Made by a program: the position numbers and the translations under genes. DNA of 64,000 bases from Streptomyces sp. NPDC092296 (lineage in GTDB: Bacteria; Actinomycetota; Actinomycetes; Streptomycetales; Streptomycetaceae), in NCBI RefSeq assembly GCF_044755465.1, contig NZ_JBIVRB010000010.1, positions 27,517-91,516 of the forward strand, given 5' to 3'. The notes beneath the pieces were generated by a model. That model was not told where the DNA came from. It saw only the letters and a program-made list of their open reading frames with translations, and ran no database searches. Of the stretch, positions 8,711-16,846 are shown in pieces. Numbering within the stretch: position 1 is the first letter of the stretch; each line of letters opens with the position of its first letter.

Positions 8711-9865
8711 TCAGGTGAGCTTGCCGCTGGCGAAGCCCTGGTAGACGTTGAGACGCTGCATCGCGCTGGTCCCCTCGATGAACTCCAGCGACCGCGCGTC
8801 CCGGGCCAGCTTGTCCAACAGCGGATGGTCGAGCCGCGCACCCGGCCCGAAGAGACCGCACGCCGCCAGGGTGGCATCCTCCGCCAGCGCGCTCGCCCGC
8901 AGTTTGGCCGCGGAGGCGAGCGGCCCGCCGTCGGGGCCGCCCGCGTCCACCGCGGCGGCGGCCCGGTGGACCAGCCGCCGGGTGGCGTCGACCCGCCGCT
9001 CCAACTGCTCCAGCCGGTCGTGCTCGCCCGTGCGGAGCGGGCCGCGATGGGCGCGGACGTACTCCAGCGCGGCGCGGGCCATGCCCACGCCGATCGCCGC
9101 CACCCCCGGCCGCAGCCGGTTGAAGGTCTGGATGAAGGCCCAGGTGCCACGGCGGCTCGGCGGGAGGTGGCGGCCGAGCAGCCGCTCCTCGGGGATCTCC
9201 ACGCCGTCCAGCTCCACCGCGCTGATACACGCTCCGCGCAGCCCGATGGTCGGCAGGACCTCGGCCCGGTAGCCCGGCACCGCCGTCTCGGTGAGCACCG
9301 CGACCACGCCCAGCGGCCCCGGCCGGTTGCGGGCGAAGACCACGCCGAGCTGCGCTCGGGCCGCGTTGCCGACGAAGCGCTTGGCCCCGGTCAGCAGCGC
9401 CCCGCCGTCACCGGCGGGACGCAGGGCGGTCCGCATGGCGCTGGCGTCCGAGCCGTTGTCGGGCTCGGTGAGCGCGAAGAAGGTCCACAGGGGCTCGGCG
9501 AGCATCCGCCCGTAGAACCACTCCTTCTGCTGCTTGTCCGCCAGCAGCCCCACCAGGACGCCGGCCAGCAGCGGCCCCGGGGAGGCGACCAGGACACCGG
9601 CGTCGGCGCAGGACAGCTCCTCCATGATGACCGCGCGTTCCACGGCCCGGGTGCCGTGGAAGCGGTGCCCGGCGATCGGCTCGGGGTCGTTCCCGTACTC
9701 CGCCGGGATGCCCATGGTGGCGAGGTAGCGGACGGCGGGCAGGTCGAACCAGCCGCGCACCGCCGCGGGGTCGCGGTCCAGCTCCAGCGCTCGGGCGCGG
9801 AAGTCCCGCCCCCACTCCCGGAACTGCCCGCGCAGCGCGGTCAGGGGTCCGTCGAGTTCCGGCAC
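8711..9865 (-). CDS. Acyl-CoA dehydrogenase family flavoprotein (possibly ACP-substrate dehydrogenase/oxygenase)
   Basis: The true start is probably GTG at 9865 (SD GAGGAGGA upstream), giving about 385 aa VPELDGPLTALRGQFREW... with the ACAD middle and C-terminal domains (..FALTEPDNGSDA.., ..RLEFIEGTSAMQRL..). The track's 433-aa version has an Arg-rich, over-extended N-terminus. Confidence 0.75.
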   Translation of the reverse strand: MPELDGPLTALRGQFREWGRDFRARALELDRDPAAVRGWFDLPAVRYLATMGIPAEYGNDPEPIAGHRFHGTRAVERAVIMEELSCADAGVLVASPGPLLAGVLVGLLADKQQKEWFYGRMLAEPLWTFFALTEPDNGSDASAMRTALRPAGDGGALLTGAKRFVGNAARAQLGVVFARNRPGPLGVVAVLTETAVPGYRAEVLPTIGLRGACISAVELDGVEIPEERLLGRHLPPSRRGTWAFIQTFNRLRPGVAAIGVGMARAALEYVRAHRGPLRTGEHDRLEQLERRVDATRRLVHRAAAAVDAGGPDGGPLASAAKLRASALAEDATLAACGLFGPGARLDHPLLDKLARDARSLEFIEGTSAMQRLNVYQGFASGKLT

Positions 9866-9879
9866 GTCTCCTCCTCGGT

Positions 9880-10587
9880 TCAGCCGCAGCCGCCGGCGTG
9901 TCCCTCTTCGGAGGAGGGGCCGACGGAGCCGGGGCCGGACGGTACGGGCAGTGACTCCGCGCCGGGTGTCTGCGCGCGCAGATGCGCGACGAAGTCCGGC
10001 AGGCGGTCCCACCCCCAGAAGCGGTTGAACCCCTGAACGAAGAAGGGCACCCCGAAGACCCCGTCCCGGCAGAGATCGAGCAGCAGCCCGGCGCCCTGCT
10101 CGCGCAGGTCCGGGTCGGTCGCGGCCCCGGCGGTCTCCTCGGGGTCGAGGCCGAGTTCGGCCCCGAGCTCACCGACCACCGCCGGATCGCAGATGTTGCG
10201 GCCCTCCTCCCAGCGGGCCCGGTAGGCGGCGGCCACGAACTCCCGGCCCAGACCCTCCCTGCGGGCGACCAGGTAGGCGAGGTGCGGAACCTCCCAGACC
10301 GGCTCCCGGTCGACGGGCCACACCACCCGCCGGCCCAGCCGCTCCGCGAGCCGGCCGACGTCCTGGAGGATGTAGAGGTGCTTGGCACGCGACATCGGCA
10401 CATAGGGGAAGGCGCCCCCCAGCTCGATGAGCCGGGCGGCACTCTTCTCGTCCGGCTCCCAGAAGGGCCGCCACTCCACCTGCTCCGCGACATCGGGGTG
10501 GTGCTCCAGCAACTCCCGGTGCGCCAGCCAGGAGTAGGGACTGCGCAGCGAGAAGTAGTAGCGCGGCTGCCTCGGCTTCCTGCCCAT
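9880..10587 (-). CDS. DsbA-like thioredoxin-fold protein of the 2-hydroxychromene-2-carboxylate isomerase family
   Basis: The 235-aa protein has an N-terminus RYYFSLRSPYSWLA typical of HCCA-isomerase/DsbA-like proteins. Its ATG overlaps the fabG stop (ATGA). Confidence 0.7.
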   Translation of the reverse strand: MGRKPRQPRYYFSLRSPYSWLAHRELLEHHPDVAEQVEWRPFWEPDEKSAARLIELGGAFPYVPMSRAKHLYILQDVGRLAERLGRRVVWPVDREPVWEVPHLAYLVARREGLGREFVAAAYRARWEEGRNICDPAVVGELGAELGLDPEETAGAATDPDLREQGAGLLLDLCRDGVFGVPFFVQGFNRFWGWDRLPDFVAHLRAQTPGAESLPVPSGPGSVGPSSEEGHAGGCG

Positions 10588-15287: not shown

Positions 15288-16543
15288 CGTTCCGGCTCGT
15301 AGCGGCCGAGGATCAGCACCGCGTTGTTGCCCGCGAAGGCCAGGGCGTTGTTCTGCACGATGCGGACATCGGCCTGGCGCGCCTGGTTGGGCACCGGGTC
15401 GATACCGCACTCCTCGTCCGTCGTCCGGTGGTTGATGGTCGGCGGGATGAACCCCTCCGTGATGGCCAGCGCGCACGCGGCCGAGGCCAGCGCACTGGCC
15501 GCGCCCATGGTGTGCCCGAGCATTCCCTTCACCGAGACGGTCGGCGGCGCGTCGCTGAAGACCTGCCGGATCGCCCCGGCCTCAGTGACGTCATTGGCCT
15601 TGGTCCCGGTGCCGTGCGCGGAGATGAAGTCGATCTGCTCCGGCTTCACCCCGGCGTTGCGGTGGGCGAGCTCCATGCAGCGGGCGAGGCTGTCCCGGTC
15701 CGGTGCGACCGGATGGCTGGCGTCGCAGTTCAGGCCGTAGCCCAGCACCTCCGCGTAGATGCGGGCGCCGCGCCGCCGGGCGGACTCCAGGCTCTCCAGC
15801 AGCAGGATGCCGCCGCCTTCACCGGTGAGGATGCCCTTCCGGTCGCTGTCGAACGGGCGGCAGACATCCGGTGCGATGGTCCCCAGCCGGTAGAAGCCGG
15901 TGAAGGTCTTCCGGCAGACCGCGTCGGCGCCGCCGCACAGCGCCATGTCGACCTCACCCGCCCGGATGGCGTCGTAGCCCGACCCGATGGCGTAGTTGCC
16001 GGCCGCGCAGGCGGTCGGGATGGTGACGGCCTCCGCGTCGACCAGTTCGAGTTCGCGCACGATGCCGCTGGAGAGTGCGCCGGCCGAGGCCCGGCGCGCC
16101 ACCCGCCCGTCGACGGGCTCCCCGGCGAGCTGCCGCGCCACCAGCTCGTCCAGGTCCCTGGACTCCCCGTCGGTGGTGCCGACGGAGACCAGCACCGCGC
16201 GGCTGCGCAGCTCGTCCAGGCCCAGCCCCGCGTCGTCGACGGCCATGCGGGCCGCCGCGACCGAGAACTGGCTCGCCCGGCCGAGCTCCTCCGGGTCCAG
16301 CACCTCGATCCACCGCGACGGATCGAAGTCGTCGATCTCGCAGCCGTTGGCATGGGCGAATCCGCTGGTGTCGAACGCGGTGATCGGCTTGACCCGGCTG
16401 CGGCCGGAGCGCAGACCCTCCAGGAACTCCGTCACCCCGATGCCGATGCTGGTGACCACCCCGATTCCGGTGACGACCACCCGGTGCGGCCCGTGCCCGC
16501 CGCTCACCGTCTGATCCCCGGTGTGATCCACGGTGTGATCCAC
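15284..16543 (-). CDS. Beta-ketoacyl synthase (KS-alpha, FabF/type II PKS KS)
   Basis: The 419-aa protein has the active-site Cys (TACAAGNYAIG) and the His motifs (SAHGTGT, GHTMGAAS). The GTG start follows SD GAGGAAGG. The N-terminus DHTVDHTG is encoded by a 12-bp tandem repeat. Confidence 0.9.
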   Translation of the reverse strand: MDHTVDHTGDQTVSGGHGPHRVVVTGIGVVTSIGIGVTEFLEGLRSGRSRVKPITAFDTSGFAHANGCEIDDFDPSRWIEVLDPEELGRASQFSVAAARMAVDDAGLGLDELRSRAVLVSVGTTDGESRDLDELVARQLAGEPVDGRVARRASAGALSSGIVRELELVDAEAVTIPTACAAGNYAIGSGYDAIRAGEVDMALCGGADAVCRKTFTGFYRLGTIAPDVCRPFDSDRKGILTGEGGGILLLESLESARRRGARIYAEVLGYGLNCDASHPVAPDRDSLARCMELAHRNAGVKPEQIDFISAHGTGTKANDVTEAGAIRQVFSDAPPTVSVKGMLGHTMGAASALASAACALAITEGFIPPTINHRTTDEECGIDPVPNQARQADVRIVQNNALAFAGNNAVLILGRYEPER

Positions 16544-16579
16544 GGTGTGTCCCCTTCCTCCGCGTCCGATCGGCGTCGG

Positions 16580-16846
16580 CTAATTGGCGGACGCGTCCTC
16601 GACGACGGCCACGACACCCTCCAGATTGACCATGCGGGTGAGCTCGCTCTGGTCGATCTCGACGTTGAAGGTGCGCTCCAAGGAGGAGAGGATCTCGATG
16701 GCCCCGAGGGAGTCGGCGCCGTGGTCCTTGAACAGGCTGGTCCAGGTCACCTCGGCGGGCTCGATCTCCAGGATCTCGCAGACGATCTCCTTGATCTGCG
16801 CGCGCTGCTCGTCGTTCAGCTTCGCGGCGCGATCCGTGGCGGACAT
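16580..16846 (-). CDS. Acyl carrier protein
   Basis: The 88-aa protein contains ..KDHGADSLGAIEILSSLE.., with the DSL phosphopantetheinylation site. It is the first gene of the minus-strand operon. Confidence 0.85.
   Translation of the reverse strand: MSATDRAAKLNDEQRAQIKEIVCEILEIEPAEVTWTSLFKDHGADSLGAIEILSSLERTFNVEIDQSELTRMVNLEGVVAVVEDASAN

Follow-up and report, generated by a model that had tools for sequence, protein, structure and literature searches.

Several papers, that describing antiSMASH 8.0 among them, use the term highly reducing type II polyketide synthase (PKS). In the case of ADEP a non-aromatic type II PKS makes the polyene side chain of a nonribosomal peptide synthetase (NRPS) product, and this system has been grouped with the sky and iga systems (PMC8182300, PMC11446937). 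[quoted passage not shown] The locus considered here is an operon of ten genes on the minus strand (positions 8711 to 16846) of a 64,000-nucleotide stretch of DNA from Streptomyces sp. NPDC092296 (contig NZ_JBIVRB010000010.1), the whole of which we call the window. We consider it probable that this operon encodes a highly reducing, that is polyene-type, type II PKS, which is controlled by a SARP-type promoter and delivers a polyenoyl chain on its acyl carrier protein (ACP) to the NRPS lying at the window's left edge.

According to an analysis of GC content at third codon positions (GC3) in the different frames, combined with the mapping of starts and stops, the ten consecutive genes fill 16846..8711 exactly. 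Their order is ACP, KS-alpha, alpha/beta-hydrolase, double-hotdog protein, CLF, two dehydratase subunits (DH1 and DH2), ketoreductase (KR), isomerase-like protein and a flavoprotein of the acyl-CoA dehydrogenase (ACAD) family. The window is high-GC actinomycete DNA (72-81% GC), and GC3 lies between 0.85 and 0.96 across all ten genes. Each assignment was confirmed by Pfam and NCBIfam, so that the gene set listed in a first-pass annotation, made from the letters alone, proved to be correct; furthermore, when genes were called independently on a contig of this strain from the Logan assembly, the lengths of the first five came out the same. The same annotation had described seven of the nine junctions as overlapping, by 4-nt ATGA/GTGA overlaps or otherwise, with 16543/16580 as the exception. 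Mapping of starts and stops bears out the number but alters the details. Three junctions (KS to hydrolase, double hotdog to CLF, DH1 to DH2) are indeed 4-nt GTGA overlaps, whereas the supposed ATGA overlaps are TGATG overlaps of 1 nt, again three in number (hydrolase to double hotdog, DH2 to KR, KR to isomerase); the 20-nt overlap of CLF and DH1 is contingent on the start codon chosen, an alternative DH1 start being the GTG at 12318. Gaps are found at the two other junctions, one of 36 nt between ACP and KS, as had been seen, and one of 14 nt between isomerase and ACAD, which had been missed. In both cases a strong Shine-Dalgarno sequence precedes the downstream start, GGAGGAAGGGG for the KS and GAGGAGGAG for the ACAD. 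Since other genera show an equal order with equally close coupling, chance occurrence of open reading frames (ORFs) does not explain the arrangement.

Three termini within the operon are lengthened by short in-frame tandem repeats relative to their homologues. A 12-nt unit repeated 3.2 times (16512-16549; MDHTVDHTGDQT) spans the KS start codon, leaving the start ambiguous among three GTG codons. At the C-terminus of the hydrolase there is an in-frame 9-nt unit in 3.8 copies (14464-14497; DSDDSDDSDDS), and at that of DH1 an in-frame 15-nt unit in 4.3 copies (11876-11939; GVVS repeats).

The placement of the operon depends in the first instance on its condensing enzymes. The KS-alpha (15284..16543, minus strand as for all operon genes; 419 aa) has the N and C ketoacyl-synthase domains of Pfam and a Cys179/His310/His344 triad, which is invariant in an alignment of 13 sequences. 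A protein of Streptomyces sp. NPDC092296 matches it with 100% identity. Its best match in the PDB is Iga11 of the ishigamide system (6kxd_A; 543 bits), compared with about 254 bits for the best FabF and 187 bits for the actinorhodin KS, while against the FabF equivalog TIGR03150 it reaches 336 bits, under the cut-off of 494. Likewise the KS-beta or CLF (12344..13456; 370 aa; Pfam ketoacyl-synt 3e-12) finds its best PDB match in Iga12, with 216 bits against 80 for FabF. The comparison with FabF, aromatic and ishigamide-type enzymes that the first-pass annotation had recommended, here made by bit scores and not by a tree, thus comes out on the ishigamide side. A pairwise alignment to the KS shows that in the CLF a Ser replaces the active-site Cys and that the HGTGT motif is lost, in agreement with the earlier description of a Cys-less KS-beta; judged by these residues the CLF is catalytically dead. 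Profile scans of the window ORFs detected no KS/CLF beyond this pair.

Equally important is what accompanies the pair. Pfam and NCBIfam scans of the ORFs between 1 and 17.9 kb turned up neither an enoyl reductase nor a malonyl transferase, and likewise no cyclase and no aromatase. The proximity to Iga11/Iga12 together with the lack of enoyl reductase, aromatase and cyclase places the operon among the highly reducing (polyene-type) type II PKSs. An aromatic type II PKS, which the first-pass annotation had rightly doubted, is disfavoured both by the low score with the actinorhodin KS and by the missing cyclase and aromatase families. Similarly, a housekeeping type II fatty acid synthase (FAS II) would be expected to contain a KS above the FabF threshold and one of FabI, FabK or FabL, and neither was found. 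Because no enoyl reductase is present, the growing chain would be a conjugated polyene, with the caveat that the reverse reaction of the ACAD is conceivable in principle.

The enzymes that would process the beta-keto group are consistent with this assignment. DH1 (11863..12363; 166 aa), a hotdog dehydratase subunit with weak matches to FabA/FabZ, contains a catalytic His in GHYPG, and DH2 (11336..11866; 176 aa), a FabZ-like hotdog subunit (NCBIfam FabZ 5e-18), contains a catalytic Glu in LLESWAQ. In FabZ the active site is composed of a His from one subunit and a Glu from the other. Among 39 homologues of DH1 the His of GH(Y/C)PG is invariant and the Glu position variable; among 50 homologues of DH2 it is the Glu of ESWAQ that is invariant and the His position that varies. 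This complementary conservation indicates that DH1 and DH2 would form an obligate heterodimer with one composite active site, much as had been suggested from the tandem hotdog genes, and the suggestion is supported by three Kitasatospora loci in which the two are fused into proteins of 316-352 aa (L083 14214-15272, L088 12098-13048, L089 12113-13141). The KR (10587..11336; 249 aa) is a FabG-type beta-ketoacyl-ACP reductase, scoring 303.8 bits with TIGR01830 (cut-off 297.75) and possessing the motifs TGGSRGIG and YSASK.

Relatives of the KS occur in at least 585 of 185,579 species genomes. For comparison by tblastn we took 88 loci, the 80 best and eight fetched via individual proteins, and assigned them to classes by a position-based rule. 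Class A has the order ACP-KS-hydrolase-double hotdog-CLF-DH-DH-KR-isomerase and is seen, apart from the window, in 19 loci belonging to Streptomyces, Kitasatospora, Saccharothrix, Actinosynnema and Umezawaea. Class B, with the order ACP-KS-CLF-KR-isomerase followed directly by an NRPS, is represented by 28 loci, including that of the colibrimycin producer Streptomyces sp. CS147. Class C is the cinnamoyl type, in which a second KS/CLF is inserted after KS1 (37 loci); the published gene tables for kitacinnamycin and globisporamic acid follow its order, with Kcn8/Kcn9 and GlaH/GlaI in the hydrolase and double-hotdog positions. A neighbour-joining tree of the KS sequences pairs class A with the main group of class B as its sister and leaves the cinnamoyl class outside; the nearest neighbours of the window are Kitasatospora loci, one of which (L083) is the closest relative of the operon. 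The ACP is 60-83% identical in related loci. The genomic contexts of the copies are varied, often with NRPS, halogenase, MbtH and transporter genes adjacent.

These comparisons bear directly on the notion that the operon, as a variant of FAS II with no relation to secondary metabolism, makes housekeeping lipids or those of the cell envelope. The first-pass annotation had named two signs that would speak for such a pathway, a KS falling within FabF and a synteny conserved across unrelated actinomycetes in the absence of NRPS neighbours. The synteny is indeed kept across several actinomycete genera and some copies have no NRPS within 10 kb, but FabF is remote from both the KS and the CLF, an enoyl reductase is lacking, the relatives are patchily distributed, and the contexts differ, with SARP regulators nearly always adjacent and those genes of secondary metabolism frequently so. 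Taken together, we regard a housekeeping function as extremely improbable.

A separate observation concerns six loci of Saccharothrix, Actinosynnema and Umezawaea (L085, L011, L025, L026, L044 and L045), in which two SARP genes in tandem precede the nine-gene cassette and no NRPS is encoded within 10 kb. For L085, the one examined downstream, a GFO/IDH/MocA oxidoreductase and an ABC exporter follow. Such an arrangement may constitute a stand-alone polyene-acid cluster.

The ninth gene (9880..10587; 235 aa) encodes a putative cis-trans isomerase of the DsbA/HCCA-isomerase/GST-kappa type (PF01323, 2e-17), which shows 58.6% identity with its counterpart in the colibrimycin locus (L082). The sequences PRxYFSLRSPYSW and FGVPxF are motifs of actinobacterial cinnamoyl isomerases belonging to the HCCA-isomerase/GST-kappa family (PMC12532209), and YsfG, from the same family, has been described as a glutathione-dependent cis-trans isomerase (PMC9381841). 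The protein encoded here matches both motifs, carrying PRYYFSLRSPYSW and FGVPFF, which fits the double-bond editing that had been envisaged for the operon. It could also be taken to mean that the operon is a cinnamoyl (benzene-ring-forming) cassette, as in the skyllamycin, WS9326 and kitacinnamycin clusters, the more so as Kcn8/Kcn9, GlaH/GlaI and Sky20/Sky21 are the counterparts there of the hydrolase and double hotdog, and as an NRPS is nearby. However, the same work places non-cinnamoyl isomerases, including Cbm22 of colibrimycin, in this family (PMC12532209), so that the motifs, being common to non-cinnamoyl members, are necessary but not sufficient for a cinnamoyl cassette. Gene content argues in the same direction. 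A second KS directly follows KS1 in 37 of the 37 cinnamoyl-type loci examined, whereas here the KS/CLF is single and the KS is followed directly, with a 4-nt overlap, by the hydrolase gene, KS2-CLF2 being absent from the window. In addition, the cluster part of the window contains no ORFs of 110-135 aa that could, judged by size, represent the cyclase trio Kcn17-19/GlaN-P/Gac11-13; the regulator is a SARP and not the LuxR pair typical of cinnamoyl clusters; and the KS lies in a clade with colibrimycin-type cassettes, outside the cinnamoyl clade. A cinnamoyl function is consequently, in our view, very improbable.

The regulation of the operon can be approached through its upstream region. The ACP gene (16580..16846; 88 aa; PF00550 3e-14), whose product has a DSL phosphopantetheine site within GADSLG and whose ATG is preceded by GGAGG, lies downstream of three direct NGTCAG hexamers with 11-nt spacing (16927-16922, 16916-16911 and 16905-16900, minus strand), recognised by reading of the sequence as candidate SARP boxes. 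A -10-like AAGAAT (16889-16884) is situated about 10 nt further downstream. Three hexamers at a spacing of 11 nt are the geometry expected of SARP binding sites. Among the upstream ACP regions with the triple (L002-L010, L019, L083 and L084), it recurs at equal distance in all Streptomyces and Kitasatospora class-A loci; it is also present in many class-B loci, and in the Pseudonocardiaceae loci three equally spaced (T/C)ATAG elements replace it. It is therefore likely that the NGTCAG triple represents the SARP boxes of the operon promoter. A scan with the sigma-70 consensus yielded no promoter, the comparative alignment of upstream regions being more informative. A candidate regulator of the SARP family is encoded on the plus strand at 7858..8622, convergent on the ACAD gene, and contains the BTAD and Trans_reg_C domains of Pfam. 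SARPs 50-70% identical to it flank class A and B cassettes, and SARP genes stand beside nearly all of them. Between the two convergent genes a GC-rich inverted repeat (8647..8681, without assigned strand; 10-nt arms, 90% complementary, 15-nt loop) is a possible bidirectional terminator missed by the consensus terminator scan, whose only match, at chance level, falls inside the DH1 repeat.

The hydrolase and the double hotdog, which in classes A and C alike are translationally coupled between KS and CLF and in class B are absent, form the part of the operon whose function is least apparent. The alpha/beta-hydrolase (14415..15287; 290 aa; PF12697 6e-15) lies between the KS and the double hotdog in both classes, has a candidate Ser/Asp/His triad with an AHSYA nucleophile elbow read from the sequence, and matches only generic esterases among PDB sequences. 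The double-hotdog protein (13453..14415; 320 aa) has an acyl-ACP-thioesterase-like fold. By position, size and annotation the former is the counterpart of Kcn8/GlaH/Sky20/Cal25 and the latter of Kcn9/GlaI/Sky21/Cal26/YsfF. We infer for this pair a role in the editing or off-loading of ACP-bound chains, the weakest step of the model set out below. The pair is conserved in this branch with a single KS/CLF, and its role is not explained in the literature we reached.

On this basis the operation of the system can be pictured as follows. An Sfp-type phosphopantetheinyl transferase (PPTase), encoded on the plus strand at 16971..17918 and divergent from the ACP gene (PF01648 3e-13; HetI-like and AcpT-like NCBIfam matches), would convert the ACP to its holo form. 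As no malonyl transferase is encoded, either the FabD of primary metabolism would load the ACP with malonate or the ACP would malonylate itself, a reaction reported for Kcn4 (PMC9321520). The KS/CLF heterodimer would then condense iteratively, the FabG-type KR reducing the beta-keto group after every condensation and DH1/DH2 dehydrating the product at a composite site, with the His from DH1 and the Glu from DH2, such that a conjugated all-trans polyenoyl-ACP would grow, most likely to C8 (octatrienoyl). Subsequently the isomerase-like protein would bring one of the double bonds into the cis form through the reversible addition of a thiol. The product is thus probably, by analogy, a short polyenoyl-ACP, namely a C8 triene with one cis bond. 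A short triene is favoured on the grounds that colibrimycin contains a C8 triene, that the cinnamoyl KS1-CLF1 pairs are proposed to stop at C8 and that the operon has only this first pair. Finally, the starter condensation (C) domain of the NRPS would use the acyl-ACP to N-acylate the first amino acid. The NRPS in question is an N-terminal condensation-adenylation part (1..1855, minus strand) cut by the window edge, with Condensation and AMP-binding domains and MxcG-like/EntF-like starter-module matches, and it is 45% identical to the NRPS directly after the isomerase gene in the colibrimycin locus. A homologue search with this truncated sequence gave seven matches, two with informative contexts and none of them the strain's own protein. 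Given a C domain of the MxcG/EntF kind and its identity to the colibrimycin module, direct acyl transfer is the simplest continuation.

Several points weigh against this picture. No malonyl-CoA:ACP transacylase gene is found among the ORFs up to 17.9 kb, and the chain length and double-bond geometry are drawn from analogy. The NRPS is 6.9 kb from the end of the operon, beyond another sub-cluster, and is truncated, so that the hand-over of the chain is deduced only from adjacency and from the class-B arrangement. Moreover, in the Pseudonocardiaceae class-A cassettes have no NRPS within 10 kb, which implies that the cassette can work without one. The cbm cassette of colibrimycin itself has no hydrolase, no double hotdog and no dehydratase genes next to the KS, and the two systems are therefore not equivalent gene for gene. 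As to the double hotdog, an informal comparison with E. coli YbgC, rather than a computed alignment, suggests that the canonical Asp of 4HBT proteins may be replaced, and hydrolytic activity is accordingly not assured. Lastly, there are six loci whose PKS operon ends with an ACAD gene, and this enzyme might therefore act on the polyketide chain.

The sub-cluster between the NRPS and the SARP gene is a unit of six plus-strand genes (2077..7604), annotated by Pfam and NCBIfam. It encodes a divergent FabH-like beta-ketoacyl-ACP synthase III (KAS III; 2077-3027), in which Cys and His are present and the catalytic Asn is missing; an ATP-grasp ligase (3129-4448); a BtrK-like aminoacyl-carrier decarboxylase dependent on pyridoxal phosphate (4438-5739), with 310 bits to BtrK versus at most 185 to diaminopimelate decarboxylases; a carrier protein (5822-6097); a 288-aa protein with marginal similarity to the FabH N-domain, here unk6100 (6100-6966); and a 213-aa protein to which no family is assigned, unk6963 (6963-7604). 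In butirosin biosynthesis the BtrI/BtrJ/BtrK logic consists of ligation of a glutamyl group to a carrier and decarboxylation to the gamma-aminobutyryl-carrier (PMC11350588). As its decarboxylase is nearest BtrK, the unit would probably yield a gamma-aminobutyryl (or beta-alanyl) carrier thioester. The likeness to butirosin lies in the adjacency of a BtrK-like decarboxylase, an ATP-grasp ligase and a small carrier protein, and the difference in that the trio is joined here to a FabH-like pair, a protein without assigned family and an ACAD within an NRPS/type II PKS cluster. A resemblance to PqsB/PqsC, seen for unk6100 as well as for the FabH-like protein, reaches marginal scores only and is a weak lead. 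A cispentacin-type (AmcB/E/F/G) assignment was rejected, the matches being far below the cut-offs.

The six-gene unit is complete in L087 and partial in L089, and in L084, L007, L010 and L019 all of it that falls inside the locus is present; in all, it accompanies class-A cassettes in at least eight genomes and in two different arrangements. Several type II PKSs are primed by KAS III enzymes. One could envisage, then, that the cassette extends an amino-acid starter, a gamma-aminobutyryl-S-carrier protein priming the KS/CLF via the FabH-like enzyme to give an omega-amino polyene, and the recurrent association as well as the BtrK-like decarboxylase would accord with this. Yet class-A cassettes in L085, L011 and L025 have no such unit within reach, the FabH-like protein, itself highly diverged, is without the catalytic Asn, and in L087 the unit adjoins the NRPS and not the PKS. 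On balance we consider such priming improbable.

The distribution of the ACAD is instructive in this context. The protein (8711..9865; 384 aa) has the middle and C-terminal ACAD domains of Pfam and retains the catalytic Glu, its IEGTS aligning with YEGTS of butyryl-CoA dehydrogenase. Of the activities proposed in the first-pass annotation, that of a dehydrogenase type is therefore upheld, whereas an oxygenase of the DszC type is disfavoured by the presence of the Glu. An ACAD terminates the operon only in the window, L003/L083, L009, L088 and L089, and most class-A loci have none; it is thus accessory, by this comparison, and outside the conserved nine-gene core. In the window as in L089 and L086 it is a neighbour of the aminoacyl-carrier unit, and it appears to occur only where a BtrJ/BtrK/BtrI-like unit is present or possibly present. 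Beyond the ACAD of L089 the order SARP-TauD-MMPL-unk6963-unk6100 repeats the arrangement of the window with two inserted genes. The ACAD of L086, from Actinosynnema, is 69% identical and comes immediately after homologues of unk6100-unk6963, and its neighbours include a halogenase, diaminopropionate-synthesis genes and a related NRPS. Since it tracks the aminoacyl-carrier unit rather than the PKS, we provisionally assign the ACAD to the pathway of that unit. Being an enzyme of the true alpha,beta-dehydrogenase type, it would most likely act on a carrier-bound thioester of the BtrJ/BtrK/BtrI-like pathway, for example gamma-aminobutyryl-carrier protein, and not on the polyene.

A tailoring function on the polyketide chain has nevertheless to be considered, with the ACAD serving as a flavin-dependent surrogate enoyl-ACP reductase for selected double bonds or aromatising 6-pi-electrocyclised (2E,4Z,6E)-octatrienoyl-ACP to 2-methylbenzoyl-ACP. 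Its gene is the last of the operon, lies no more than 14 nt past the isomerase gene and has a ribosome-binding site of its own, it holds the same position in L003/L083, L009, L088 and L089, its catalytic Glu is intact, and the cinnamoyl literature proposes a 4Z C8 triene made by the isomerase. Nonetheless, we judge this to be unlikely, as most class-A cassettes manage without an ACAD, the L086 orthologue is coupled to unk6100-unk6963 and not to a PKS, a fully conjugated polyenoyl thioester offers a classical ACAD no saturated alpha,beta position, and no electron-transfer partner is encoded. A more speculative and distinctly doubtful proposal would unite the polyene cassette, the ACAD and the six-gene unit, its degenerate FabH-like partner included, in a single pathway. 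The trienoyl chain would then be joined to an ACAD-desaturated carrier unit derived from gamma-aminobutyrate, by a PqsBC-like condensation or by FabH-like priming, to provide the NRPS with an undescribed amino-polyene or heterocyclic building block. The link between ACAD, BtrJ/BtrK/BtrI-like unit and polyene cassette is not explained in the literature we reached.

On the right the cluster border is marked by an LAETG-anchored surface protein of the SCO1860 family (18056-19501, plus strand), located directly beyond the PPTase gene. It is followed by an MFS transporter, a regulator, GlnII, cobalamin genes and genes of the ethylmalonyl-CoA pathway. This sequence of a sortase-anchored protein, then transporter, GlnII, cobalamin and ethylmalonyl-CoA genes identifies the operon as the right-hand edge of its cluster. 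Two cobalamin riboswitches in this region (30452-30598 and 45572-45700, both minus strand; 63 and 74 bits) precede minus-strand blocks of cobalamin biosynthesis at 23.6-30.4 kb and 35.1-45.5 kb. Further to the right an ethylmalonyl-CoA-like run (56660-63539, minus strand) contains a crotonyl-CoA carboxylase/reductase-like protein of the zinc alcohol dehydrogenase type, a B12-dependent mutase, an HpcH-type lyase and an ACAD. It adjoins phosphatidylserine synthase and decarboxylase genes and belongs to primary metabolism, unrelated to the operon.

How then does the locus compare overall with the systems described? With ishigamide (Iga10-Iga16; 6KXD) it has in common the best solved-structure matches of KS and CLF, a discrete ACP, KR and DH, the lack of an enoyl reductase and the iterative polyene logic; it differs in its additional isomerase, hydrolase, double hotdog, two-subunit dehydratase and ACAD, the sequence comparison being confined to KS and CLF. 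The two-subunit hotdog dehydratase is reminiscent of the ApeI/ApeP pair of aryl-polyene clusters, in that homologues of DH1 and DH2 carry the ApeI-like and ApeP-like domains of Pfam, although DH1 and DH2 of the window miss those models at E <= 0.01 and aryl-polyene clusters are Gram-negative and use a different KS set. ADEP (A54556) of Streptomyces hawaiiensis, which can be likened by literature description only, shares an octatrienoyl side chain made by a type II PKS. ADEP clusters carry a clpP resistance gene. In L083, a Kitasatospora xanthocidica-like locus, two clpP genes (8206-9503) lie between an NRPS/type II thioesterase/MbtH block and the ACP gene; this pair recalls the ADEP resistance gene and is a lead only, and no clpP was found in the window.

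The cinnamoyl cassettes from clusters for cinnamoyl-containing nonribosomal peptides and for cinnamoyl lipids (Kcn4-15, Sky17-27, Cal25-37, GlaD-V and Ysf) share the backbone ACP-KS1-...-hydrolase-double hotdog-CLF1-DH-DH-KR-isomerase, their KS1 is 66-77% identical to the KS of the window and their isomerases have the same motifs. Their second (and third) KS/CLF, second ACP, three small cyclases and LuxR regulators are all missing here, and a benzene ring is for this reason not expected. Colibrimycin (cbm, CS147) agrees in other respects: a single KS/CLF with KR and isomerase, SARP control and an NRPS with a related starter module. Identities amount to 78.5% for the KS, 63% for the CLF, 70% for the KR, 59% for the isomerase, 55% for the SARP and 45% for the NRPS starter module, and GTCAG repeats occur upstream of the ACP gene in both clusters. 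The gene order nevertheless departs from the colibrimycin type, with four extra internal genes, a terminal ACAD and an NRPS set apart beyond the aminoacyl-carrier unit, and the window contains neither halogenase nor OCD/PALP genes. The operon accordingly marks an uncharacterised lipopeptide-type cluster, related to that of colibrimycin but differently built. It leaves the current understanding of the enzyme family unchanged. The three-way classification of architectures, the dehydratase with a split active site and the conserved SARP-box promoter may be useful for mining and engineering. Ultimately, the operon is an uncharacterised addition to a family already described, by way of the cinnamoyl, colibrimycin and ishigamide systems and, according to the literature, ADEP, rather than a new type of factory, and among the highly reducing type II PKSs it illustrates, in compact form, the branch with a single KS/CLF.

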